From Tubulanus polymorphus (Eukaryota; Animalia; Nemertea): a stretch of 64,000 bases of DNA. Below the pieces are notes generated by a model. It was not told the DNA's origin. It did not search any database and saw nothing but the letters and a program-made list of their open reading frames with translations. The position numbers and the translations under genes were made by a program. Positions 4,134 through 63,998 of the stretch are shown here, in pieces; position 1 is the first letter of the stretch, and every line of letters begins with the position of its first letter. Location: contig NC_134027.1 in NCBI RefSeq assembly GCF_964204645.1, positions 21,538,560 to 21,602,559 on the forward strand, given 5' to 3'.

Positions 4134-5312
4134 CTAATGAAGAGAATGTTTTTGATAATTAGACCTACATACCGGACAGCTGTTAACGCTGCCTACATTC
4201 AATTCTTCGAACATATTCAAACATGTTTTATGAAATACGTGTGAACATGACAATAAAGTCACTTCTCTAACGCCAGGTTTGTAAGATTTCTTCGATGGTT
4301 CTGGTGGAGTTGCTTCCTCCTTCATTTCTGCCTCATCGTATCTGCCTAAGTTGGGATTTTGGTATAAACCCGTTTTAGACAACAGATTCAAACAAATAGG
4401 GCATTCCGAATCAGCCCTATCTTTAGCTGACGTTTCTATACATTTCCATTGTTCTTCCGTTATTTTAAAAGACGATTTCTCCCACTCATTAAACACTCGG
4501 TTACTAGATGCAACACTTTGATCAATCTCTGCTAAGAAATTATTAATATCGTTATCGAAAGAGTTTACCATTCTATCTACTATCGTTTCGAGTTTTCCTT
4601 CAAAATATATCCTCCTCAGCTTCGGGTTCTTCGGCGGATTTTTCTCCCTGTATTCTTTGAACCAAGCCCTAGCCCTGTATCCTCTCCAACACGCTTGTAT
4701 TCTCGTAGCGCAACTGTCGCGGTGATGTTTGGCGCCTTCGTGAATAACTCTGGTTTCATACTGTTGTCTTCTACACATAGGGCACGACTTCTTACCGGAA
4801 AATCTCTCGAAAGCTTTTAAACAAACCAAATGAAAAACATGCGAACACGATAGTAACACCTGCTGACCGGTTCCAAAATCATCCTTACAAATGATACACG
4901 GTTCTTTAGAATCGTCGCGATTATTCGACTTAAGTTTAGCTATTCGCCAATCTTCCTCCGATAGTAACGACGGAGGCGACTCTACTAATCCTAGTTTCTG
5001 TGCAAGCGTTTGCGCAGGGGGTGCTTTATCAAGTACATATTCCCGTGGTTCCTCCTCAATATGATTCGAGTTTTTCTGCCGGTGCTTCTTAAGTCCAGTA
5101 TCGACTACAGGTCGTCGTACCGGTACTGTTGGTTTCTTCTGTCGACTCTGCAATGAATGACTGCGTACCTGCTGAGCTGAATTGAGATTCAAAGCCATAT
5201 TCTTCATATAATGATCTTGAAGAGCGACTGCCGCCAAAGCAGTGCTGTACCGGTGATCATTTTGTTTTCCAGCTTGTCTGTTTCGAGTAGACATTCGGCT
5301 TCTTTGCTCCAT
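4134..5312 (-). CDS. RNF32: RING finger protein 32 (RING-IQ-RING), single coding exon
   Basis: 392-aa ORF with TLAQKLGLVE, RING CIICKDDF..LLSCSHVFH..C..CPMCR, IQ motif IQACWRGYRAR and a second RING CPICL..LSCSHVFH..C..CPVCR. Confidence 0.93.
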   Translation of the reverse strand: MEQRSRMSTRNRQAGKQNDHRYSTALAAVALQDHYMKNMALNLNSAQQVRSHSLQSRQKKPTVPVRRPVVDTGLKKHRQKNSNHIEEEPREYVLDKAPPAQTLAQKLGLVESPPSLLSEEDWRIAKLKSNNRDDSKEPCIICKDDFGTGQQVLLSCSHVFHLVCLKAFERFSGKKSCPMCRRQQYETRVIHEGAKHHRDSCATRIQACWRGYRARAWFKEYREKNPPKNPKLRRIYFEGKLETIVDRMVNSFDNDINNFLAEIDQSVASSNRVFNEWEKSSFKITEEQWKCIETSAKDRADSECPICLNLLSKTGLYQNPNLGRYDEAEMKEEATPPEPSKKSYKPGVREVTLLSCSHVFHKTCLNMFEELNVGSVNSCPVCRSNYQKHSLH

Positions 5313-33300: not shown

Positions 33301-36300
33301 CCCCCACCTGACTCCAGTGGGTGTGATTTAGTTTGTTATGGAGCTACAACTGGCCGCTCAGCTTTTACGGCAAATAAACTTAAGATATAAAAAAAAACAA
33401 TATAAACTGACCCTTACCTGATGACATGATCTTTGTCTCTCACCTTCCTTTAAAAAACATTTAGCTGTTCAAACTTTCGTGATTACGAGTTAGGAAAGCT
33501 TGATAACCGTGCCAACAAATTAGAAAATTTCATCATTCAACTTATTCATATCTACAGTGAGAACTAGAGAGTCGGATGAAACAGCGACCGAGGGAGCAAC
33601 GAGGGAAGCTGAATATTTTCGATTACAAGTCGAAACTATTCGCGCACAAGGTGGCGAAGGTTGGCTGAGTCTACTTAATGATATACAGATTTCAGATCAG
33701 GTAAAAAAGTTCTATTTTATACAATTGTTTTTGACTAAACCGCTAAGGCTATTGTCTGGATTCATTATTTTACTACGTGCCCTCTGTCTCCTAGGTCGTA
33801 ATGGGCCTTTACTTTTTAGCCCACTTGGGACTTTAGTCCCAGCGGGCTATTGCGTTCACTTTTCGTCCGTCGTCCGTCCGTCCGTCGACGGAATCCAGTT
33901 ATTTTGGGAAGTTTTGAAGACGCTTCAAGGTAATGTCTTGATATTTGGTTTATACATGTATCTACCCTAGACACATCTTCAGCCCAAAAACTGGCCCTGT
34001 CAGATTCAAGATGGCCGACTGGCAGCCATTGTTGTTCGCCAAAAAAAGCACTTTTTACACATTTTCGAAGTTTACGAGGGAAATTTTGAAGACGCTTTGA
34101 TCATTTACCTTGATCTTTCGATTATATTTGAATCTACCAAGGGCCCATCAGCATAAGAAAAATTGGGTCCATCTGACTCGAGATGGCCGTCCTATGACCT
34201 TTTAAGTGCCCAAAAATGTCAAATTTGGCCAGAATTCTAGGTCCTGTAGCTTCCTACTGGTTTGCCATTTCTCATTGCAATTTGTGATGGGTATTCTTTG
34301 TAAAGGGATGTTTTATACCTGAGACAGGTATTTTTGATCTGCCAATTATGATGCAATTGGCGGCCATCTTGGTGTCATTAGTACTTATTTGTAGGTGGGA
34401 AAAAGTTTTTCGACATTATATTGATACCTAAGCATATTTTGCTACAACAATGAATTAGAAAGTTGTAGCGTATAACGTGTTCTATGATTGGGGTGAGTTT
34501 CAAGTTCATTGTTTTTTGTATATGGCCACCAGGGGGCGTTGAATAATACAATATCTTAGTATTTCTATATTATATTCGTACCAATACATATTTTGTTACC
34601 GCAATCAATTGCAAAGTTGTAGCTCATGACATCTTCCATGATTATGGTGAGTTTTAAGGACATTAGTTAATGTATATGGTCACCAGGGGGCGTTGAATAG
34701 TAGAATAACCTGGTATTTCCTTATTATATTGGTACCTAGGCATATTTTGTTACCATCATCAATTGCAAAGTTGTAGTTCATGACATGTTCTATGAATATG
34801 GTTAGTTACAAGGTTATTGGGTTTTGAATATGGTCACCAGGGGGCGTTGAATAGTAGAATAACTTAGTATTTCCATATTAAATTGTCAACGAGGCATTGT
34901 TTGTTATCACAATCAATTACAAAATCGTAGCTGCTGACATGTTTTATGATTGTATTGAGTTTCAAGGTCATTGGTTTTTGTATATGGTCACCAGAGGGTG
35001 TTGAATATTGAAATTCTTAGATTGTTGAGCATTTGAAACCACTTCCCAAGTGGGCATGGTGTCCCTGGACCCCTAGTTTGTTTCTTTCTTTGATAGGTGT
35101 TCGATGTCGGTTCAGTTAATTCAAATAGAGTGTCTACATCAAGTGAACAGTCATCTGTCAGGTAGTGGAGTAGAAATTTGATAATCATTTGCTTCAAATA
35201 CGACCTTACTTCAGTAGAAAAAGATTTCTGTTTTGAAAATGGCTCATTGAATTGAGTGGAAACATCACTACTCTCTTCGCGTTTCTTCAATCATAATTGT
35301 GGATCATAATTTTTCTTCAAAAGAAAAGACATCTGTTGCCCTCATTCACGCCAGATTTCGACATTCTGGACCCACTTCTACATTAGATGAGTTTATTTTT
35401 TGCCCAATTAAAATTCTATGGGTTTCCTTTGGATCCAGTTTGACATCAAGAAGCAATTCCCGAGTTTAAAAAGTGAATATCTCATCAGAAAGTAACTCTA
35501 GAGTCATATCTGAATCCATAACTGTTCAGCAGTATCTCTGCATCAGCCTTTTACGATGAGCAGATTTTCTAAGCAGATCTTATGAAGATCAGCGTTGAAT
35601 ATTGTTCGCTAGAAAATGAGCGATCGCATTCTCCCTTGGTGAAATTGGTTACAAGAAGCTTTGAGTACATATAAATTCTCATGCAACCTCGAAAGCAACT
35701 GAAACCTTTTTTGTTGCGCTTTGTTTTCTAGATCTGAAGAGATCGTGCAGTCGGCCACTTGTTCGAGTATCATTCCACCGCAGTTGCCCGGAGTCGAGGA
35801 TAGCGAATTCGTTACGCACGTGAAACTGCTTATCTCTAGTTTAAACATACAGACTCATATACCGGGAATAACCGGTTCTCCGTGCGACGAAAACGAACAC
35901 ATATTCTCCGTGCTTTGGTGTCGGTGTTACCCGTATCGATCGGAGCAGACGTCGTTTTTCGCTAGCGTCGTTTTAACCAACGAAATGTTGCACATATTCA
36001 AACTGAAATGTTCGACGTCGCGCAAAACCGATCTGTCGCACGTCTACAGCATTCCGATCAACAACTTACAAGAGGTCATCGTCGGTTACTGCGGAATGTA
36101 CGCGCGCGTCGAAGAAGCGTTTATCGGGTCGCCGGGCACGTTTACGTTTCGACCGGCGGACGCGTTTCAAATCGAACGGTTCGTCGCTCGATTGCGCGAT
36201 CTGTGTAAAATCAACGATCAAGACGTGCTTCTGGTCGTACAGTATGCCGACGTAGCCGAGCAGCGGCTACAAATGGAAATCCAACGCCACGAACCGCGCG

Positions 36301-38963
36301 AAAATCTCGAAATCGTGCACTACACGTACGTCGAAACGCAGCAGCAGCTGACGGATAACCGCGTGTGCTCGGCGGTCGCGCTGACGCGACGCAATCTCTA
36401 CCTGATTCACGAGAATATCCTTCATTTTCCGATTCCGACGTTCGAAATCAACGCGACGCCGACCGACAAATATCAATACGAAATCGTACAAATTCATCCG
36501 CTAGTGAATACGGTGAAGGACGTGCAGTTTATGACCAAGAGCGACGAATGTTCGGGAAAGCTTGAAGTGTTGTTGTACGGTTTAGAATTGACGTTTGAAT
36601 CGGTTCCTCTTCCGTACAAAACCGAATTACCGGTTGGATCGGCCATCGAAGTCGTAGAGGATTGGTCACCGGTGTTTAAATGTTTTTTCCTATCTGCAGA
36701 GAAAAGAGATTTATTCCTCTGTCAACTGATGCAACAAAGGCGTAAATTATTACTGCCTATAGATCGCGCTGAAGGAAATGGTCACAATGCAAATTTTGAT
36801 GCTGTAAGTTTAGAAGGCGCAACAGGATTTGGATCGAATATGTCGGAGACAACACTCGATGAGGAATACTGGGAAACTGCTGAGGAGGACGATATGATAG
36901 ATACCCCTGGGCGGTTAACTCCAGATCCATCAAATTCAACAAAGGAAAAGAACCTCGGACTTGGAAATTCGGTTTTAAAGCTTAGTGTACAGAGTGAAGA
37001 AAATGACTTTTCAATCACTGATGAATTGGTTTCAGACCAACAAGTGACAGAGCCAGATCAACTTGCAGAGGTAGACGTAGTCTCACAAGAGCAATTGGAC
37101 AAGGAAACACCCTCAGGTCAACAATCAGATATGTATAAACCCTCAGACCAACAAAGTGACATGGACAAACACTCACAACAGCTAATATACATGACCAAAC
37201 CCTCAGAACAGCAAACATCAATGGAAACATTCTCAGAACACCAGCAAAATGACATGAATACTTTGCCAGAAGAGCAAGCTGATATGATCACACCCACAGA
37301 AAAAGAACCTGATATGGATAAATCCTCAGAACAGCAAACGTATATGGGGACATCCTCAGAACACCAGAAAATTGACATAAATACATGCTCAGAAGAGCAA
37401 ACTGATATGGTTACACTCTCAGAAAAAAAACCTGATGTGGAAAAACCCTCGGAACAGCAAACTGACATTGATAAACCCTCACAACAGGAAACTGATATGG
37501 TGAAACCTTCAGAACAGACAACTTACAGAGAGAAACCCTCGGAACAGCACACTGACATGGATAAACCTTCAGAACAGTTCGAAAGTGAGGTTGAAGATTC
37601 TAAACAAGCGCTCTCTACTGCGAAAACAGATGATAGCCTTCAGGATGGATTGAAATGTTCACCAGCACCGAGTTCATCTTGTTGCACAACATCCGCTTTA
37701 CCATACGTTTATGAAAACTCGGAGTTCGTGGAACAAATTGAGACTCAAATACGCAACACAGAAAATGTGATGGAATTATCATCAGCCATGAAATCATTGT
37801 CCCAGAAGTCTGGTGATGAAATCATTAACTATTTCCATAATAACCTCGTGCAATGCGGTCTCGAAAATGAAGAATTGAGGCACATTTTATGGAGTCCAGT
37901 TATTCCTTACGCGAGCCCGGATGTCACCGTTGTAACGTGTATATTTCTGAGCAGTAAAGCGATATATATAGTGTCGGATGAAGAAACCGTGATAAACCGA
38001 ACGCAACCGACGACCTGGCAAAAACATGTCCGAACTCAATCCGATTCTACGGTCGGCGCGCACAGAGATCCTATCCCTGTTATGAAAACGCCGTTACAAG
38101 AATCGTTGCGCTGTATCGCCGTATTACCGCTGAAAAATCTTAAACAAGTCGACATCGGATTATTCGACCAGTGTTTCCGGTTAGCCGGTATAGACGGCGA
38201 CAGCGTCTACACGTGTATGGCGCGCAGTATGAGTTTGACCGACGCGTTCGTTCATCAGTTGATGTCGGTGTTGATGAAGTGCCCGGCGAATTCGTCATCG
38301 GACTATTCGAGCAGCGATTCGGAGCAGGACATCTACGCGCGGTATTCGCGCAGCGAGCCGATCGCGTCGCAAATAAGCCAACGATGCAAGGTGAAATTCG
38401 TCTACGCCAGCGAGGAGTCGATCGCCGAGCTGTGCTTCCTCATTCACAGATACCTGAAAATAAAGATCGAAAATCCGACTGCGTTCACGATTCTCAGTTA
38501 TTTGCTCGTTTTCCGACTCGAACCGTCGTCGGAATCGCCGCGAAATCGCGGTCGGCGCGACCAAGCGCGCTCGATTATATTGACCGATCGATATCTCTGT
38601 ATCGTCAAAGAGGACTACGCGAACTATCCGCTGTTGGATTTCGTACGCAGTCCGCCGGACAACGTCCAGTACGAGGTCTGCGACGTTCGTCGACTCGAGT
38701 ATCTGCGTCGCGTCGTCGTCAGCGACTTCACATCGAACGACGTGACGTTCGAGTTCTCCGACCACGACGAGGACATCGTCGTTGATCCGAGTAAGGATTA
38801 CTTTCGCAAAGACGAAGACGGCGGCCGAGAGTCGCCGAAATCTGTTTCGTGGACGATTATCGTTCAGAACAGCCGCGACAAGGACAAGTTGTTGAAACTT
38901 ATCGGTAAACAATGGAGCGATTGTCACAACGGTTCTCAGTTATCGATACAAGTCAGTACATGA
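24393..38963 (+). CDS. NISCH: Nischarin-like protein (PX + LRR + long C-terminal region), ~17 exons; first 24393-24479, last 35732-38963
   Basis: PX exons WTVKHRYSEFHDMHEK and LPPKKIFG..FLDFHKY; LQLYAINERLK; DIGHILDF; LRR exons (LDLSHNAL..LHTKLGNLKKLNLSGN; LPCLEKLLLMGNP..DYRTKV); KELDTVAIL; large terminal exon. Confidence 0.9.
25199..25437. mobile_element. Two abutting Harbinger-like MITEs (25199-25327 and 25331-25437) sharing a CAG junction
   Basis: TIR pairs ggtccagttgctcaaaaattggtt/aaccaatttttgagcaactggacc and ccagttccacagttgtgag/ctcacaactgtggaactgg. Confidence 0.8.
26754..27141. mobile_element. GC-rich MITE in nischarin intron
   Basis: TIRs agggacacatgagcgtattttttgcccga / tgggcgaaaaaatacgctcgtgtgcccct. 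Confidence 0.75.
28390..28600 (+). repeat. Dispersed repeat with a tRNA-like segment (related copies at ~30190-30320 minus, ~52830-52910 minus, ~55520-55700)
   Basis: tctagtgtggcagggtttc..ggtt(t/c)gaatccctgccggggagg preceded by gattggctaataatgacatcatctaagc; several copies in the window. Confidence 0.6.
29497..29764. repeat. Near-perfect long inverted repeat (~105-bp arms, ~45-bp spacer)
   Basis: taggcctaatgttcgttaccggaagtaggtatcag...gcattttctc is mirrored by gagaaaatgc...ctgatacctacttccggtaacgaacgttaggccta. Confidence 0.92.
31699..32168. repeat. Tandem duplication, 2 x ~230-240 bp, intronic
   Basis: atgtactgtttacctgttaacc...gtagatacttgcccttat occurs twice. Confidence 0.92.
33813..35077 (+). 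mobile_element. Helentron/DINE-1-like non-autonomous rolling-circle element; further copies at ~41347-42280, ~28078-28380 (5' part), ~45305-45580 (3' part, minus)
   Basis: T-rich start; subterminal IR gcccacttggga/tcccaagtgggc; (TCCG)n microsatellite; internal 154-bp tandem units; ends ..cccctagt followed by T-rich sequence. Confidence 0.8.
37110..37580 (+). repeat. Coding tandem repeat, ~15 x 10 aa (consensus ~SEQQTDMDKP), in the nischarin last exon
   Basis: Visible in the translation of ORF 35721-38963 and as a ~30-nt period (ctcagaaca.caaac). Confidence 0.85.
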
Positions 38964-51900: not shown

Positions 51901-52169
51901 CCGTCATAAACTCGGCAAAACTTTTTATTAATCGAAAATGATTTATGTTAAAATATATCCCGACATAAAATCAATTTTCTATTACTTCTAAATGATGTCC
52001 CCAGGACGCCTCCGTAATCTTTTGATACACGTATTTCAGTTGAAATCTAGTTAGCCTCGTTTAAAAACACTTAAATTCCCGGTGGTTAACAAAGGCATAC
52101 CTTGTAGAAATAGCAAAGTGCAATAATGCTTGCTACAAACACAGTAAATAATATCATCAAATCAAACAT
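45941..52169 (-). CDS. CYP20A1: Cytochrome P450, CYP20 family, 11 exons; apparent +1 frameshift in exon 5 (~49444-49448)
   Basis: Exon 1 MFDLMILFTVFVASIIALCYFYK (52169-52101); GNLADIRKAGSLHEFLLEIHRKYGPIVSFW; I-helix FTGGLHTIAS; ETLR; FDPERF; heme motif FGFAGKRKCPG. Confidence 0.88.
48353..48960 (-). mobile_element. 5'-truncated non-LTR retrotransposon (C-terminal CCHC region) in a CYP intron
   Basis: KLRSY..FGTEDYV..IARLRNG..L.IELGRY..EQRICVAC...ETEEHFLCTC..Y.DLR, typical of LINE ORF2 C-termini. Confidence 0.8.
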
Positions 52170-52347
52170 CGTGATATACCAGTAAGTTCCTTTGTGATAC
52201 CAGTAAGTTCATTCGTGATATACCAGTAAGTAAGTTCATTCGTGATATACCAGTAAGTTCATTCGTGATATACCAGTAAGTTCATTCGTAATATACCAGT
52301 GTGTTCACTCGTGATATACCAGTGTATGTTCACTCGTGATTCACCAG
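52170..52347. repeat. Minisatellite (~23-27-bp unit gtgatataccagtaagttcattc, ~7-8 copies) abutting the CYP start codon
   Basis: Directly visible tandem units ending at the ATG (52169). Confidence 0.9.
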
Positions 52348-53343: not shown

Positions 53344-55179
53344 TAATGAGATACTACAAAAATCATGAGATATATATATACAATCCAGAGACAAAGAGAC
53401 TAATTCAATTAATCAGAGATGATACAAACTAAAGGAAAATAAACGTAGAAACAGTTACACACTAAAATAGATTAAAGGGGAGCAAACTAAGGGGTAATTA
53501 TAAACAACAATAGTGAGTGTAAATATAAATTAGAACTTGAAATCAGTAGTAAAAAGACAAACTAGGGGGCACTTAAATTAAAACAATGGTGAATACAAGT
53601 TGAGAGACTAAAATAGATGAGAGAACAAATAACAAATAATCAAAGGGGAATCAAGTGTCGAGTTTAACCAGTTTACAGAGGAATTTAGATATAAGTTTAT
53701 TATGGGGTGAAAAACCATTGTTTAGGTTTACAACGTTGTTAGAATTTTCAATTATTAATGCAGATTCCAAAATATGTCTTTTAGTTTTATCGCTGCAAGG
53801 GTAAATTAATTCAGCATAAGCGAAATCAAAATTGTGTGAAGTCTGAAATACATGGCTAGCAACTCCGCTTTCAGGTTTAAAGTTTTTTACATCTAACTTA
53901 TGCTCTTTTATGCGTTGATTAAGGTTCCGACCTGTTTCTCCTATATATATACTTTGTCGCAAACTTTACAACGTATTTTATAAATTCCACAGTTTAGGGA
54001 TTCAGTTTTCGGTTTGTTATTAACTTAAGAAACTTTAGAATTCTCGAGGAAAGGTACATACGGTACAATGATAGGCTGTTTATAGGTAGCCAAGGTAGGA
54101 GTTCTAAGGTTGTTATTTCTAAAATGCGTAGTACCAGCTTTAAGGAGAGCTTTTTTCAATATGAAATCGGGGTAGGCAAGTTTTTTGAGAGATTGGTTAA
54201 TATGTTGAATTTCATCGGGTTGAAATGAGGGGTCGCAAATTCTCAAAGCGCGAAGAAATAATCCTTGAGCCAAGCCGAGTTTAATATCCGGAGAAGTAAA
54301 AGAGAAGTAATGGATGTAGGATTCAGCGTTGGTAGGTTTCCTATAAACCGCGAATTTCAAAAAGGATCCACAGTTAAAAATCAAAACATCCAGCAAAGGT
54401 ATTTTACTATTAGATTCCCATTCATATGTAAAAGCCAGAGACGGGTAAAGGGAGTTTGAATATATAAGAAAGTTATCAACATTGAAGTCAAAGGGAACCA
54501 AGGCCAGAACATCGTCAACATATCTGAGCCAGATTTTAGGGTGACTATTAGTATAAAGAGGCAATATTTCAGATTCAACATGTTCTAGGAATAAATTAGC
54601 TAGAATAGGACTAAGAGGGTTTCCCATAGCGATACCGAATGTCTGTTCGTAAAAACAATTGTTGAATTCAAAAAAGGAGTCCGTCGTACAAATAGAGATA
54701 AGGTCGATGATACAATCCGTAGGAATGCCGAAGTTAATATTAAGTGATGGTAATCTACGTTTTAAGAAATCAAGAGTAGGTCCAAGAGGAACATTGGTAA
54801 AAAGGGAAGTAACATCAAATGATATATATGTCGTTGCCAGGGATAATATTCTTAATACGTTCAAGTAAGTGTTGATTATGGCGAAGGTGCGACGGAGAGA
54901 ACGAACCGAGCACAGGAGATAACTGTTTCGCGAGAAATTTAGATAAGCGGTACCGGTATGTAGGAGAATTACAATTGGAGACTATAGGGCGCAGTGGAAC
55001 ATTATCTTTATGAATTTTAGGCAATCCATAGATATATGGTAAAGAGGGAAGACGTGAATGGAACTTATTCAGAGTTTCTTTAGCGGTGGGACCACGTTTA
55101 ATAATATCCGAAAGACTTCTGTTGAAATTAGCTTGCATACGAGGAAGAGGATTCGATTTAAGCTTCTTATAAACACCTG

Positions 55180-55296
55180 GGGCCAGTTGCACAGTCGTGA
55201 CTTAAGTCCAAAAGTGGTCTTAAATCTTAAGACCGGTCTTAATTTGTTAGAATAGCTATAGAACAAAGTTGGTCTTAATGACTATGCAACCGGTCC
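55180..55296. mobile_element. MITE family A copy inserted in the Penelope ORF, CTG TSD
   Basis: ctg|GGGCCAGTTGCA...TGCAACCGGTCC|ctg; removing it restores LLDNPGVYKKLKSNP. Confidence 0.9.
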
Positions 55297-56159
55297 CTGG
55301 ATTATCCAAGAGAGATTGCATTTTAACATTATAATTATCCAGATCTAAAATCACAATCTTGCCACCTTTATCAGCCTTAGATATTTTAATAGTCTTTAAC
55401 TTCCGTAGTTCTTGGAGGGCGAGCCGAAATCGACGAGATAGATATTCAAAGAGGTTCCTGTTGAGCAAATGATCGCAAATGGCAAATGGTTGATCGCAGC
55501 ACCGCGCGAAAACTTGCGGCACCAATGAGATTGCTCGCTGTGTAATCGCGGAGGTAAATTCCACGGAAGAACTATAAATGGGAAAATGGGCTAAAATTAA
55601 ATGATGTCATCATTAGCTTAGATGATGTCATTATAAGCCAATCAGATATCCCGTTTCATTTCAGCCCTGTATTTCCCATTTAGTTCTTTCGTAACATTTA
55701 CCTGGCTCTAATGAGATTCATAAACGCTCCCAATCGTAATTTGGAAGTCCATAATCCTTATTCCTTACATGCGCTATGATTTTGTACTTGATGCAAATTC
55801 TACGAACGGTAGAACTCTCAAATGGTACGAACTCTCAATGTATATATTTCAACCTAATTCGAAAACCCATTGTCGATATCGACTGTTTGTTCATGAATTA
55901 TGAAAAGGTATTGTTGAATAAATCATATCATACCATCCAGGGAGAAACACACTAGCTAATATGATGGTTATATCAAAGCTGTGGGTAGTTTTGTTTAAGT
56001 GGGTAGTGTAGTGTGATCTGTGTGCATTTGTGGCCAGCGCACAGATCACAACGATCATAGTTAGTGTAGTAATATACGTCCAGCTAGAGGCAATATGTGA
56101 AATATGTGGAAAAATATCAATATTACAAAATTGTTCATATGTTCAAAGATCCATCCATT

Positions 56160-56937: not shown

Positions 56938-57698
56938 GTTTGTACATTTACATATATACAGTCTTGATCGGGCTCTATTTACATTGTCCAGTGACGATTT
57001 GGCCCGGTCCAAATTGGCACCGATCAGGCTTCGGGCCAAATTTGGCCCGTGCCTAATTAGAGAGCGCGTTCACACGCAAACCATTTGTCTGGTGCTCAAA
57101 TTAGGCTCGGGCCTGGTCCGACGTTTTTGGTTGGGCACAATTTGGCCCGGGTCAAACAGGCTCGGGCCCATTTGGCACCCATGTGAATAGTTGTTCCGGG
57201 CCAAAAATGCACGTGTGGTCGCGGCTTATAATCCATTCTTAACAACGGGTCCCCCGGTATGCTGATAAACACGTTGAAACATTAGATACCGGTACACGAA
57301 TAAAAAATGTGAAAACGCTGTCAGAAATTGGTTTAATCATATCGATGGAATACAGTCATAAAGAGTAATAGTAATAGGTTTACACGCAAAATGTATGACA
57401 TCATGCTGAGTGATATTGCACGGTCCCGCAACACGGGTAATGGGCACCTGGTGTACGCGATTTACTTAATCGACTTGGTTGCGGTATTGTGTGGATAAAC
57501 CAAGAGATTTCAAAACTATCACCATATCTATATTCATTCTACATGTTTCAGATGACGCGTAACTGGTGCACTGTACTGCTCAGTCTAGAGCGGTTAATCG
57601 TCGTGTTGTTTCCAGTAATTAGATAAGTAGGCTTTCAGATCAGAGGGCGAGAGGGCGAGACACCACTCATCACCACAAGTAATTTTTTTCCCTAATAA

Positions 57699-60600
57699 AT
57701 GGGGGAGAATGAACACCAACTAGAAAACAATAATGTCAATAAAAATCAATATTATTGTCAATATTGTAAAAAATACATCGATACATCTCATAAAACACGA
57801 CATGAAAAAACTGCAAATCATATAAAAAATGTAATAGATTTTGAAACTCCAGAAAATTCCAATGAAAGAAAAGAACGATTAGAAAATATGAATGTGGATG
57901 AAATAAAATGTGAAGTTTGTAATGAATTTATAGTAAAAAGGAATTATAATAGACATCTCGAATCACAAAAACACCACCAAAATTTGAGTAATAATGTTTT
58001 AGGAAAAGATTATTTTGATAATAAACCTCAACAAGTAAAAGAATCAACTTTAAAAACAAAATCCATTTCAAATAAACCTTACATGGAAAATGTTAGAAAT
58101 TATATTGATTCACTAGAAATAAAAGATACAATTGAAATCTTAGAAACATTACATAGTAAAATTGGTCCTGCAGCTATTATATTTAGATTCTTTAAAGGTA
58201 CAACAATAGAAGATTATAGTAAATTTAATGAAATAATAGAAAAAATACTAGATTTGATAACAGATGTTGAATATCCAAAAATTAGTATCTCTGGGAAAGT
58301 AAGTTTTATAAAGTCAGAAGAAAAAATGGATTATAATATTCAAACACTCTCTGAAGAAATAATTTCAAAAACACAAATAAAAGAGAAGTTAGAAAAAATA
58401 TTAAATGAATTTAAACGTCATATTGAAGAAAGATATTTTGAGGGTTCTGGCTTAACATTGAATGAAATTATATATTTAGATTTAAATGTTTATAATACAA
58501 AAAGAAATAAAACATCAAAAAGTAATAAAATGTTTAAAAATGATTCAAACTTTACAACAGAAAAGGATATTAAAGCATCATCTTATATTAAATTACCATT
58601 TATAACAAAAGCAGTAATAAATATTCAAAATGAAGATAATAAATGTTTTCTATGGTCAATTATTAGTTGCTTACATCCAACACAGGAAAATGTTTGTAGA
58701 ATAACAGATTATCGGAAATATGAAACATTATATAAAATTGATCAATATCCAGTAACTATAAAAATGATTCCTAAAATAGAAAAAATTAATAATTTAAAAA
58801 TAAATGTATTCGAATTAATGCAATTACCAAAGACAAAAGGTGAAAATATTAAAGATTATACATTGGAAGCTTTATATTTAACAGAATATTATGATGATGA
58901 AAATGCTATAGATTTGTTATATTACAAAAAAGATGAAAATGAACATTATATGTGGTTAAAACAAATTGATTTATTCTTTAGAACAGAAAGTGATCATCAT
59001 AATAAAATTTATCTATGTAGAAAATGTTTATCCAAATTTATGACTGAGAATACATTATTAAAACATAAAGAATTATGTGATAATAAAGATTTTTGTAAAT
59101 TAATAATGCCAACAGAAAAAGATTATAAATTGAAATTTACTAATCATAAATTTAAAAATATTGTTCCATTTGTAATTTATGGGGATTTTGAATCGTTGAA
59201 TAAAGAATTAACTGATCAAGATAGAAAAGAAATATATAACAAAAAGCAATTATTAAAATCAATGGATAAAGGAAATGATTTAAATGAAGACATAATACAA
59301 GACCCACCAATTATAAATACAATTAAAAAAGTTCATCAAAGAGCTGCTGCTTATGGAATTTACATAAAATCAAATTATCCTGAATTATATGAAAGTCAAT
59401 ATATTTCTTTTAGAGGTGAAAATGTAGTTAATGATTTTTGTGATAAAATTATTGAATTAGAAATTTTGCAAAATTATTAAACAAAAATAAAAGAATAGTT
59501 ATGACAAAAGAAGATGAAATTGATTTTAATTATGCAACTCATTGTTGTTACTGTGAAAAACGTTTTTATTCATTTGATAAAAAAGTTAGAGATCATGATC
59601 ATTTAAATTCAAAATATCGTGGAGCTGCTCATGAAGATTGCAATTTACAAGCTAAAAAAGTAAATTTCGTACCAATATTATTTCATAATTTATCAGGATA
59701 TGATACCCATCTATTTATAAAACAATTATCGGGAAAATTGGGCACAATTAATCAAGAAATAGAAGAATATAATGCTATGAATGAAGCAAATGTAAGAAAA
59801 TATGATTTTAAACTATTAGCTAAAACATCTGAAAATTATATTTCATTTCAATTTGGTTGCATTAGATTTTTAGATTCTTATAGATTTCTAGCAAGTTCAT
59901 TAGATAATTTATCAAAATCATTAGTTGATAATGATTTTGTTATAACTCGATATTATTATCCAAATGAACAAGATTTTAAATTATTGAGATATAAAGGCGC
60001 AATTCCTTATTCATTTTATAAAACACATGATGATTTTAATGTAACAGAATTATTAAAAGATCAATTTTATGATCAATTAAAAGAGGAGTATGTGAAAGAC
60101 GAAGTGTTTAATAGAACATTAAATATTTGGAACCATTTTAAGATGAAAAATCATGGTGAATTAGTTGATTTATATTTAAAATCAGATGTTATGATATTGG
60201 CTGACATATTTGAAAAATTTAGAGAAGTTAATCTAAACCATTTTAATGTTGATCCTTGTTATTGCTACTCTAGTCCTGGTTTAACCTGGCAATGTGGTTT
60301 AAAATATAGAAATGTAGAATTAGATTTATTAAAAGAACCAGATATGGTTTTATTATTTGAAAAATCAATTAGAGGTGGAATTAGTGGTGTTATGGGAGAT
60401 AGGTATTTTAAAGCAAATGATGAATATAAATTATTATATATTGACGCTAATAATTTATATGGTTGGGCAATGATGCAACCTCAACCATATAAAAATTTTA
60501 TATTAACAGAAGTTGAAAATGATGATAAAACTGATTGGGAAAGCGCAATTATTAGTTTAAAAGACGAAGCGCCAATTGGTTATTTCTTTGTAGTTGATTT

Positions 60601-62757
60601 AGAATATCCTGAAAATATAAAGTTTAAAACAAGAAACTTACCTTATTGCCCAGAACATTTAACTGTAGATGATAGTTATTTAAGTGAATACCAGAAGAAA
60701 ATAAAACCGAAAGATCATGTTTTTACAGAAAAATTAATACTTACTCAAAATAATAAATACAATTATACTGTTCATTATAGAATGTTAAAATTTTATCTAA
60801 AACAAGGAATGAAATTAAAGAAAGTACATAGATATATTGAATTTAATCAATCGAAGTGGTTAGAAAAATATATAGATTTCAATACTCAACAGAGAACCAT
60901 ATCAAAAACAGATTTTGAAAAAGATTTCTTTAAATTAATGAACAATAGTTTTTATGGTAAAACATGTGAAAATATTAGAAATAGAAATGATATTGAATTA
61001 GTAAATAATTCTGAAAGATTAAGACATTTACAATCAAGTCCTAGACATTTAGGAAATAAAAGATTTGAAGATTATTTAACAGCAGTTAAATTAAAAAGAA
61101 CATCAATGAAATTTAATAAACCTATATTTATTGGTTCGACTGTTTTAGAAGTATCAAAATTATTAATGTATGATTTTCATTATAATGTTTTACAACCACT
61201 TTTTGGAGAAAAACATATAGAAATATTATATTTTGATTCTGTAACAGCTGACACCCCAATATTATTAAAATGTAATGATAAAATATTGATAAGAAGAATT
61301 TCAGAAATAATTCCAAAACAAAATGAATGTTATATTTCATATGGTGAAAAAGAACTAATACAAATAAATGGTTTAATAGATGTTTGGACAAGAAATGGAT
61401 GGAAAAAATTAAAGAATATTATTAGACATAAAACAAATAAGAAAATCTATAGAGTTAGAACTAAATTAGGATTTGTAGATGTTACTGAAGATCATAGTTT
61501 AATTAAACAAAATGGTGATGAAATAAAACCAACTGATATAAAAATTGGAGATGAATTATTACATAAAAGATTTTACCCAAGAATGAATCATATGTCATTT
61601 GATGAAATAATTGATAATATTTATAATATAGAACCTGAAACATTGGAAGAAAAAGAATATTTTATCAAAGGATTTTTCATGGGTGATGGTTCAGCAGGTG
61701 TGTATAAATATGTTAATCGCACTCAATATCGTTGGTATTTATGCAATCAAGATTTGAAATTATTAGAAAGAATAAAGAAATTTTGCGAAGAAGTTTATTC
61801 ACATAAAACATTTAGAATCATGGACCATATGAAATCATCCGCGGTTTATAGAATATTTGTAAATAATCCTAAAGATTTTGCTATAAAATATAATGATGAA
61901 TTCTATATTCATGCAATAGTGAAAAGTAATACTTCAACAAAAGAAAAGATAGTTCCAGATTATGTATTAAATGCAAAAAATAATTTAAGAAAATGGTTCT
62001 TCATTGGATTCTATGCTGCAGATGGTTCAAAAAGTTTCAAAAACCGCAAAACAATATCTTTAGCTCAAAAAGGAAAAGTTGCTATATCAGGATTGAATAT
62101 ATTATGCTGTTCATTAGGTTTTAATATGAATATTGGATTGATTAAATCTAAACCAAATTGTTTTAATTTAAGCCATGTAGAAAATGAGTTAACAGAAGAA
62201 GTTAAAGATTTATTTGAAATATATAACCCAACTGACTATGTTTATGATTTATCAACAGATGATGGAACATTCAATTCTGGGTTCCCATTAATCCAAAAAA
62301 ATACTGACAGTTACATACTAAAAATCAAGACAAATGATATAACAAAAGACTTAAAAACATTAAAACATCATTTTGATTTTAGCAATTATCCCAAAGATCA
62401 TGAACTATTTAGCAATGATAATAAAAAGATTCCTGGTAAATTTAAAGATGAATTAGGAGGTGATGAAATGATTGAATTTGTTGGGATAAGAAGTAAAATG
62501 TATAGTTACAGAACAAAAGATCATGAAGCTAAAAAGTTAAAAGGAATAACAAAACATGTGGTTGATAAACATATAGAATTTCAAGATTATATAAAGTGTT
62601 TATATAAATCAATTGTAATGAAACACAAAATGAATTGTTTAAGATCAGAAAATCATGAAATGTACATTAATGAAGTTGAAAAAACTAGTTTAAATCCATT
62701 TGATGATAAAAGGCATATTTTAGATGATGGTATAAAAACATTACCTATGGTTATTAA
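57699..62757 (+). CDS. polB: Protein-primed family B DNA polymerase (Zn fingers, putative OTU-like protease motif, endonuclease VII-like insert, 3'-5' exonuclease, polymerase) with intein; split by 1-nt deletions at ~59461 and ~62745
   Basis: ExoI VIYGDFES, ExoII FHNLSGYD, ExoIII YLKSDV; motif A YIDANNLYG, motif B KLMNNSFYGK, motif C YFD|TDS; GKFKDE, KMY, KLKGI and DDKR..DGIKTLP(YGY*). Confidence 0.92.
61238..62302 (+). mobile_element. Full-length intein (355 aa) with LAGLIDADG homing endonuclease in PolB motif C
   Basis: Starts S(VTADTPILL); block B VTEDHSL; LAGLIDADG-type FIKGFFMGDGS and FFIGFYAADGS; block F YVYDLST; ends QKN followed by +1 Thr. Excision restores YFDTDS. Confidence 0.95.
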
Positions 62758-63998
62758 AATGGATCTATATCATCAAACTCGAAATCACTATTGGCTTCTT
62801 CATTTTCATTTAATTGTTCAGGTTCTTCTTCCATTCCATTTTTCTCATTTAAATAAAGTTCTATCTTGTTCCACATTTCATCTCGCTCTCTTTGTTTCTT
62901 TTTGTTTGTTAATTCATCAAATGGAATTATAATATCTAGGTTTAAATAATTTACAATCTTATTTAAAAAGAATTCATAATTTATTGAATCTGTTATTCTA
63001 TTTTCCAAATGATACATTAATATTTGTTTAAATATTTTTTTTATATTTTCCATATCTTCTTCTGTTAATTTAGGTTTTTCATAATAATCGTTAAATAATA
63101 AATATAAATACATTTTCTTTTGTTTTGTGTTAAATGTTGGTGGAATAATTGTTTTTATAATATCTTTTTTAGTTATTTCGCCATTTTTATTTTCTATTAT
63201 TTTCATTTTTTCAAGCCATTGCATATATTCTGGTGTATGATCTTCTATAGAAAATATTTTAAAAATTTCATCAAGATAATTTAATTTTGGATCTATAAGA
63301 AAATTTCTAGTTTTTTCTTCATCCCATAAATTCTTTTGCCATCCACAATCAACACAAAATAACACAGTACCTTCTTGCCTTAAGGTCGCATAACTACATT
63401 GTGGGCATTTTTGTTTATAATTTATTGGTAATAGATTTTCATTAAGCTCTTGGTATTTTCTTACGTTTTCTTTATGTTTTATTGTTCTATTATGTAGATT
63501 TGAATTACTTGTTGTAATAATCAATTTACAATATTTACAATAATATGTTTTTCTTGTTAATTCATTATATTGTTTTTCTAACTTTTCAACTGTTTCTTCA
63601 TTATCTGGTAATGTTTTCTCATATTTTATTTTTTCTAATAAATTATTTTTTCTTTCATTGAATTCAGTTTCAAATTTATTAGAAATTTTATCTATATGTG
63701 CTTTACGAAATTGATGATTCTCCCAATCTTCTATATTTTCAGGGCTATATTTTACTTGACAAGGCTCACAGAAATGATCTTTTATATTATCCTTATCATA
63801 GAATAAGAAAGGTCTTTTCCAAATAACTTCAGGTTCAACTTCGGCAGAATTACTATCAACATTAGCCGTTGCGCCATTAATTCTACACTTCTCTGAATGT
63901 TTTTTAACATAATTTCTTGAGAATAATTTATTACATTTTGGACAGTTTATTTTAGGGGGTTTATAATTTTCATCATGTTTTTTCATATGTCGAGCCAT
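62754..63998 (-). CDS. Element-encoded multi-zinc-finger protein (5' end beyond the window)
   Basis: At least 414 aa open; CPKC..H..C, CEPC..H.....H, YYCKYC..H.....H and CPQC..CVDC; acidic C-tail; convergent with polB. Confidence 0.75.
   Translation of the reverse strand: MARHMKKHDENYKPPKINCPKCNKLFSRNYVKKHSEKCRINGATANVDSNSAEVEPEVIWKRPFLFYDKDNIKDHFCEPCQVKYSPENIEDWENHQFRKAHIDKISNKFETEFNERKNNLLEKIKYEKTLPDNEETVEKLEKQYNELTRKTYYCKYCKLIITTSNSNLHNRTIKHKENVRKYQELNENLLPINYKQKCPQCSYATLRQEGTVLFCVDCGWQKNLWDEEKTRNFLIDPKLNYLDEIFKIFSIEDHTPEYMQWLEKMKIIENKNGEITKKDIIKTIIPPTFNTKQKKMYLYLLFNDYYEKPKLTEEDMENIKKIFKQILMYHLENRITDSINYEFFLNKIVNYLNLDIIIPFDELTNKKKQRERDEMWNKIELYLNEKNGMEEEPEQLNENEEANSDFEFDDIDPF

Follow-up and report, generated by a model that had tools for sequence, protein, structure and literature searches.

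The window, by which we mean the whole 64,000-nucleotide stretch of DNA analysed here, contains exons of several genes and, at its right end, part of a low-GC element whose DNA polymerase gene is interrupted by an intein. The exons encode the C-terminal PH domain of nischarin (E 3.5e-45), a RING-IQ-RING protein, and THUMP, P450, LRR and mL46 sequences. The nischarin sequence includes an open exon of 1086 codons with an acidic repeat (35703-38963, forward strand), and the RING-IQ-RING gene (4134-5312, reverse strand), which we take to be RNF32-like, is apparently without introns. A tandem array of approximately seven copies of a 23-nt unit is present at 52158-52343. Nischarin and the remaining gene set presumably indicate an animal host, and judged by gene content the host is very likely an animal. 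Comparison of mL46 did not separate an animal from a fungal origin, an Atlas search with nischarin gave leads only, all under 0.9, and the putative CUB and lectin exons of the window had no Pfam hit. The gene for the window RING protein is recorded on a contig of 27.8 Mb and the assembly is of chromosome scale. The window also contains a Penelope-type reverse transcriptase (RT) followed by a GIY-YIG domain; Penelope elements that combine an RT with a C-terminal GIY-YIG are described as restricted to animals except for conifers (PMC8557442; this and the other papers cited by accession or DOI are cited for the accessible parts of their text).

Past approximately 57.7 kb the GC content drops from ~39% to 22-25%, a sharp step that sets the element apart from the rest of the window (35-46%). 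The features of this region are collected in Table 1. Two candidate left ends were recognised; neither has a partner in the window and no terminal inverted repeat was found in 52-64 kb by repeat search. The window covers only the first 6.3 kb of the element, with the right part lying beyond it, and the genes within this visible part are the polymerase and a zinc-finger ORF, which resembles the polymerase in its low GC content and high read depth. Directly to the left of the polymerase, in DNA of approximately 1000-1400x read depth, a short stretch at 57552-57623 (forward strand) resembles the third transmembrane helix of GPCRs of the rhodopsin type (Pfam Srv, E 0.02). This could be a fragment of a host exon amplified by a repeat or one captured in the end of the element.

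Table 1. Features of the element and of the adjoining repeats, in window coordinates.
Feature	Coordinates	Strand	Basis
Broken Penelope-type retroelement (RT, then GIY-YIG)	53651-55600	-	in high-copy repeat nest 52.8-57.6 kb
Region with two candidate left ends: tandem repeats, short and beginning with AG, at 57362-57378 and 57642-57659	57362-57659		sequence, GC step
N-terminal half of polymerase gene: zinc fingers, exonuclease I motif	57699-59480	+	likeness to P0509
N-extein, protein-primed family B polymerase, ends YFD	59501-61237	+	PF03175, intein-less relative
Intein, 355 aa, pol-c allele, Ser1...Asn355	61238-62302	+	HMMs, motifs, predicted fold, read skips
N-terminal splicing (Hint) region, residues ~1-110: Ser1, T83, H86	61238-61567	+	TIGR01445 on residues 2-88
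Two-motif LAGLIDADG endonuclease, residues ~136-300: D150, K237, D262	61643-62137	+	PF14528, invariance, fold
C-terminal splicing region: block F D337, Lys354, Asn355	62201-62302	+	motifs
C-extein, starts TDS	62303-62746	+	84% identity over 148 aa to P0509
Convergent zinc-finger ORF of element, start at window edge	62754-63998	-	ORF list, HMM search

The exteins match the protein-primed family B polymerase profile PF03175 with 70.7 bits against a cut-off of 25.8, and show a weak match to EndoVII (PF02945). The N-extein comprises an EndoVII/HNH-like insert, exonuclease motifs II and III and polymerase motifs A and B, and is 82-85% identical to an intein-less relative. The nearest Atlas clusters of the polymerase (0.93-0.97) are eukaryotic pPolB-EndoVII proteins, mostly from arthropods. 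We take a pPolB-EndoVII polymerase to be the type usual in Polinton group 1 (Beta). The profile match and the Atlas clusters support the original prediction that a Polinton-type polymerase carries the intein, while the name ‘Polinton’ is given to the element for the type of its polymerase and for its multicopy state. It is quite unlikely that the carrier is a polymerase-only or otherwise reduced derivative and not a full Polinton, and the reading of the intein would be the same if it were. Only the two genes are visible in the 6.3 kb within the window, and neither a pair of terminal repeats nor a matching target duplication was found there, but the similarity to those eukaryotic pPolB-EndoVII proteins argues against a reduced carrier.

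The ORF containing the intein (59501-62932) is open over 1143 codons. It was considered as a complete polymerase and rejected, since the N-terminal half of the gene lies in ORF 57699-59480, in a different frame, and the homology of the C-extein ends near 62746, a few residues before the end of P0509. The latter is a single ORF of 1336 aa to which ORF 57699-59480 is 66% identical over 592 columns, and in many relatives one protein matches both halves. From these comparisons the polymerase gene of the window copy, starting at 57699, is broken twice, at ~59465-59500 and near 62745, and it is predicted that this copy cannot make a full polymerase. Near 62745 there is a length mismatch to the window in 196 of the 298 reads. 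The intein had been described as intact; this holds for its own reading frame, which is open, but not for the polymerase gene in which it sits.

The intein extends over 1065 nt without a stop codon (residues 580-934 of ORF 59501-62932), with YFD upstream and TDS downstream, so that it splits polymerase motif C as YFD/TDS. When the stretch was searched alone with the Hint and LAGLIDADG HMMs that had been proposed as a check, TIGR01445 (intein N-terminus) gave 32.0 bits with a cut-off of 24.5 and LAGLIDADG_3 (PF14528) 30.3 bits with a cut-off of 22.5; PF14890 also gave 30.3 bits (E 4e-7), under its cut-off of 35.8. An AlphaFold2 model built from a 10-row alignment had a pLDDT of 74.8, and its eight best PDB matches by Foldseek were endonuclease-bearing inteins, headed by TliVMA (E 2e-13, TM 0.63) and PhoVMA and further including PI-PfuI and PI-SceI. 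The endonuclease region matched the folds of PI-PfuI, PI-SceI and I-DmoI. The translation contains Ser1, T83-E-D-H86 in block B, GFFMGDG (D150), GFYAADG (D262), K237 in block D, D337 in block F and Asn355, followed by Thr at +1. We take D150 and D262 to be the acidic residues of the LAGLIDADG helices and K237 to be the block D Lys of the endonuclease. Eight of these residues (S1, T83, H86, D150, K237, D262, D337 and N355) are invariant in all 11 pPolB inteins.

The Ser nucleophile, the C-terminal Asn, the +1 Thr, the T-x-x-H of block B and the Asp of block F are those of a class 1 intein, two helices with acidic residues together with the block D Lys are those of a two-motif LAGLIDADG endonuclease, and the position in motif C, after the first Asp and before TDS, with kinship to pol-c-site inteins, identifies the pol-c allele. 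At the level of sequence and predicted fold it is thus confirmed that 61238-62302 is an intein with a two-motif LAGLIDADG endonuclease, and class 1 splicing would proceed through Ser1, Asn355 and the +1 Thr. The penultimate residue is Lys354, not His, so that a common but not universal class 1 feature is missing. This is not disqualifying, since 86 of the 203 inteins examined at the pol-c site have Lys here (His 97, Ser 11, other 9). A chance motif match was rejected as an explanation on the basis of the HMMs, the fold and the existence of an exact empty allele, as was a Hedgehog-type Hint domain, the segment being internal, endonuclease-bearing and related to pol-c inteins. The predicted intein, its list of motifs (Ser, TEDH, GFFMGDG, GFYAADG, Asn, +1 Thr) and its pol-c insertion site are therefore all borne out, by the HMMs and fold, by the translation, by the YFD/TDS junction and grouping with pol-c-site inteins, and by the reads described below.

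Raw reads from a separate study with the same species label as the window (X7) provided the comparison of filled and empty sites that had been suggested alongside the prediction. Sixty-one reads with 41 different starts join 61235 to 62301, skipping exactly 1065 nt (two letters at the joint fit either side), and a further 45 reads skip 1073 nt with eight replaced letters, a net difference of 1065. The boundaries of the intein are thus independently fixed. The same joint occurs in contigs of two of three other runs (X1 and X4, not X5), and it has therefore been shown that filled and empty alleles coexist in one species. In X1 a few contigs of approximately single-copy depth carry deletions inside the intein, so decayed copies exist too. 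Of the 40 best-supported differences (a further 273 exist), 33 precede the second frame break; 19 of these are in the intein, 12 of them at third codon positions, and 14 are in the exteins, 10 of them at third positions.

The depth of X7 also gives an indication of copy number. At 85% likeness four flank bins had a mean of ~7x, the polymerase bins 340-500x and the single bin wholly within the intein 185x; at 80% likeness the means were ~215x for 13 intein bins and ~620x for nine adjacent extein bins. Both intein and extein depths are far above that of the flank, and their ratio of ~1/3 to 1/2 is a rough one, since reads of distant families are placed more readily on the conserved extein. There are roughly tens of copies of the element, of which approximately one-third to one-half contain the intein. 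Only 287 of 6796 reads were at least 99% alike to the window element, which shows that the family is diverse and not a single clonal virus. Runs X5 and X6 contained only scattered related pieces, and another five runs under this species label had next to no matching words, although they are small and do not demonstrate absence.

These data bear on whether the element belongs to the animal at all. That it is a contaminant, a co-assembled virus or part of a non-animal host is very improbable. The sharp GC step at the element would agree with such an origin, and no long read or contig among those listed bridges a junction between element and host, the left flank consisting of nested repeats. Against this, the high depth and the many diverged copies recur in two studies under one species label, the polymerase frame is broken in the manner usual for endogenous copies, one of the host genes in the window is placed on the 27.8 Mb contig, and nischarin, RING-IQ, THUMP, P450, mL46 and the Penelope RT with GIY-YIG (PMC8557442) lie nearby. 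The predicted nesting of intein within element within host is supported by the multicopy depth, the diversity of reads, the chromosome-scale placement and the evidence for the intein itself.

Among the best 150 of 2115 representatives found with the intein only one matches the window exteins. Most of the others have YGD/S...N/TDS junctions and belong to RNA-primed polymerases of family B. Giant-virus MAG contigs of IMG/VR account for many of the nearest DNA loci, and the giant-virus relatives are up to 42% identical. A motif scan found four viral and 11 metagenome loci, all with giant-virus-type polymerases except L049, a 4.2-kb pPolB contig without another large gene. When length was taken into account, 14 of 44 intein-matching proteins of similar length also matched the window exteins, and a length-matched search yielded seven of 120 whose exteins are of the window type and, in addition, P0239, which is a pPolB from a different group. 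Intein-bearing polymerases in a single ORF of ~1500-1700 aa are P0236, P0237, P0244, P0246, P0063 and P0239. The last is a 1603-aa protein from a 5.3 kb ENA contig, with a VSR-like motif recognised by eye and a stronger PF03175 match; its exteins are 21-32% and its intein 41-49% identical to those of the others. The intein of Chloropicon primus DNA polymerase delta (P0332), already published (PMC10710043), is of the pol-c allele. Two related inteins at different sites occur in many polymerases of the giant-virus type and in some proteins of topoisomerase II (P0087-P0109, P0111, P0240). In P0265 a related intein (41% identity) is present in a non-allelic protein with PF03747, presumably an ADP-ribosylglycohydrolase.

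On the side of the polymerase, the best 120 of 7660 relatives of the N-extein include five filled (three in part), 114 uninterrupted and one that ends before the site. The four nearest polymerases (70-85% identical) are empty, with YFDTDS. Motif C is unusually variable in the 114 intein-less relatives (P0390-P0507) and reads DTDS in 53, DCDS in 36, DTDA in 15 and DTDG in four, with six singletons; this variability could reflect escape from the endonuclease or be a trait of lineages. A scan of viral contigs with the extein found four distant loci at 37-40% identity, and the same scan with P0236 found none. One of the viral contigs (L053, 1-13341) carries a distant polymerase relative (39%) together with a Sputnik-type major capsid protein and an ATPase.

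The origin of the intein was investigated in a tree of 11 pPolB and 56 other pol-c-site inteins (the top 35 and 20 random ones of 169 dereplicated, plus Chloropicon), rooted on four pol-b-site inteins. The pPolB inteins form one clade (SH-aLRT 100) within the pol-c inteins, and pol-c-site inteins including these are separate from the pol-b-site ones (99, a starred node). The nodes that nest the pPolB clade among giant-virus inteins are unstarred (SH-aLRT 81-94), and the neighbouring group in the rooted tree has a C-terminal G-x-P-L motif in common with it. A more careful tree of 31 rows recovers the pPolB clade (100/98) and leaves its sister group open. The kinship with giant-virus PolB inteins that had been proposed is supported by the pol-c-site relatives and by the rooted tree. 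Within the clade the P0239 intein nests beside the window intein (97/90), with an AU p of 0.044 against excluding it, a borderline result for a group that was named after the first tree had been seen.

A tree of the N-exteins (62 rows, 14 filled and 48 empty, the empty ones drawn partly at random and P0397, P0238, P0241 and P0239 being left out) requires 10 changes in intein presence, nine of them forced by starred branches, against a mean of 12.8 after shuffling. The three main intein subclades match three extein subclades, and in the main group intein and extein identities are close to each other (63 vs 61, 51 vs 49, 66 vs 66 and 77 vs 80). This match suggests that the capture is old and that long-range jumps are rare. 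The data are consistent with the intein having been captured once, long ago, from the family B polymerase of a giant virus, perhaps when both infected one cell, and with movement of the intein into the distant polymerase group of P0239, which would be a sign of homing. A recent capture in the lineage of the window alone was rejected, as the GC3 of the intein (14%) is like that of the exteins (11-15%) and the intein belongs to a clade whose members are 41-77% identical.

Further signs of homing come from the endonuclease and from closely related filled and empty proteins. Across the 11 pPolB inteins the endonuclease is conserved approximately as well as the splicing domain (52.5% vs 53.7%). Cluster P0237, from another host than the window species, has 136 members, of which 40 were read and 15 listed, the listed ones lying on contigs of up to 1.0 Mb; 12 of the 15, seven filled and five empty, are near full length and were compared as proteins. 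Far from the site filled and empty proteins are almost identical, and all nine fixed differences between them lie within -7 to +44 aa of it. As 24 of the 111 variable columns are within 50 aa of the site, the clustering of all nine has a P of 2.6e-7 with columns treated as independent. The filled flanks resemble a neighbouring family that also has the intein. A tract of this kind is as expected from co-conversion, although selection for escape from cutting would look similar. In cluster P0241 the filled P0361 and the empty P0364 differ at three of 746 residues, none of them at the site.

We consider it probable that the locus holds a homing-endonuclease pol-c intein in motif C of a Polinton-type pPolB, predicted to be self-splicing and likely to persist through homing among sister elements in what is probably an animal host. 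Splicing would involve an N-O shift at Ser1, transfer to the +1 Thr and cyclisation of Asn, and would alone be able to rebuild the metal-binding D-T-D. The freed intein could then cut the empty polymerase genes of sister elements, with repair copying the intein in. With many copies in each nucleus, targets would be available without sex, in keeping with a long persistence. Among the copies, homing might be followed by decay and precise loss in a recurring cycle, with rare jumps from one family to another. The window copy would be a broken relic with an open intein frame and unbroken copies elsewhere would be the donors. Several observations weigh against this reading. In the main group the identities of inteins and exteins go together, a pattern that long vertical descent accompanied by losses would also produce; the tract resembling co-conversion was seen in proteins of another host and not in this species; the nodes nesting the clade among giant-virus inteins are unstarred, with the sister group open in the 31-row tree; and the AU test for P0239 is borderline. 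The match to PF14890 does not reach its cut-off, the intein lacks the penultimate His, the window copy cannot make a full polymerase, and some single-copy contigs have deletions inside the intein.

The parallel subclades, the matching identities and a number of trait changes slightly below that of the shuffles (10 vs 12.8) would equally suit an intein that was captured once, is inherited vertically and still splices, with no homing today, the empty alleles then being precise losses or lineages that were never filled. This is unlikely, as the catalytic residues of the endonuclease are invariant in inteins only 41-77% identical, the flank differences of P0237 are clustered at the site, and the intein appears to have been transferred into P0239. 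A somewhat more improbable explanation confines homing to free replicating viruses, possibly in other hosts, with animal chromosomes serving as an archive of filled and empty integrations. The distant polymerase relatives (37-40%) on viral contigs, of which one also encodes a major capsid protein, the broken state of the window copy and the location of close relatives on contigs of 4-17 kb speak for it, but tens of diverged copies in both states within one species, and near-identical filled and empty copies on contigs of up to 1.0 Mb in another cluster, speak against it. Homing among sister elements remains our preferred reading. Its strongest form, in which splicing and homing are active today in animal nuclei, the giant-virus-derived intein converts empty Polinton copies and altered motifs are escape alleles (only 53 of 114 empty relatives keep D-T-D-S), is put forward tentatively and may well prove to go too far.

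The closest known systems share the site but not the setting. The inteins of Mimivirus PolB and of archaea at pol-c (Ogata et al., PMC549080) likewise have xxD/TDS, Ser first, Asn last, Thr at +1, a T-x-x-H block B and a LAGLIDADG domain, Mimivirus being compared by its description in that paper. Unlike these carriers, that of the window is the protein-primed polymerase of a small multicopy element in a cellular chromosome, and it has no BLASTP match at 1e-4 to the RNA-primed giant-virus-type intein carriers. Virus-related inteins in eukaryotic nuclear DNA polymerase genes are also known from Chloropicon and Anaeramoeba (Gallot-Lavallee et al., PMC10710043), but there the hosts are unicellular and the genes cellular; the words ‘Polinton’, ‘metazoa’ and ‘animal’ are absent from the accessible main text of that paper. 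The pol delta intein of Chloropicon included in our tree is of the same allele as the window intein. Chilo iridescent virus is a virus of animals with an intein (cited in PMC549080), but it is a large free insect virus with a glutamine-type intein and not a multicopy genomic element.

Nuclease domains within Polinton polymerases have been described as HNH/VSR insertions in pPolB2 (Jeong et al., bioRxiv 10.1101/2023.08.22.554363; Krupovic et al., PMC11071308), and the window polymerase, with its EndoVII/HNH-like insert, is similar in this respect. The pPolB2 inserts are fused domains without Hint, whereas in the window a full intein splits the catalytic motif. An origin of such inserts from invasions by inteins has been suggested by Krupovic et al. 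(PMC11071308), while the accessible text of Jeong et al. does not use the word intein. Beta adintoviruses (Polinton group 1) have a divergent PolB with a weaker PF03175 match and are endogenised in animals (Starrett et al., PMC8502044), and by this description the window polymerase would be of the Beta type, but no intein is mentioned in the accessible text on that group. No intein in a Polinton polymerase was found in the accessible text of PMC12220804, PMC11071308, PMC8502044, PMC11296320, PMC3671162, bioRxiv 2023.08.22.554363 or bioRxiv 2026.10.13.758929, nor was one reported elsewhere in the full-text literature searched, although subscription journals, Repbase, InBase and supplements could mention one. 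Inteins have been stated to be absent from metazoan genomes (PMC5784728, PMC8529194), in line with the view expressed in the original prediction that inteins are essentially unknown from host genes of metazoans.

The allele (pol-c) is a known one in a new kind of carrier, a Polinton-type element, and very likely in a new kind of host genome, that of an animal. The statement that metazoans have no inteins needs a qualifier and not a reversal, since the intein is in a virus-like element rather than a gene of the host. With filled and empty targets numbering in the tens within a single animal genome, there is a natural system for the study of homing, decay and loss, and the intein marks an exchange of genes between giant viruses and Polinton-type elements associated with animals. 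It also lends sequence support to the suggested intein invasion of pPolB (PMC11071308). If homing does take place in nuclei at the present day, Polintons would be the route by which inteins enter animal genomes, in several hosts and in both main groups of the polymerase.
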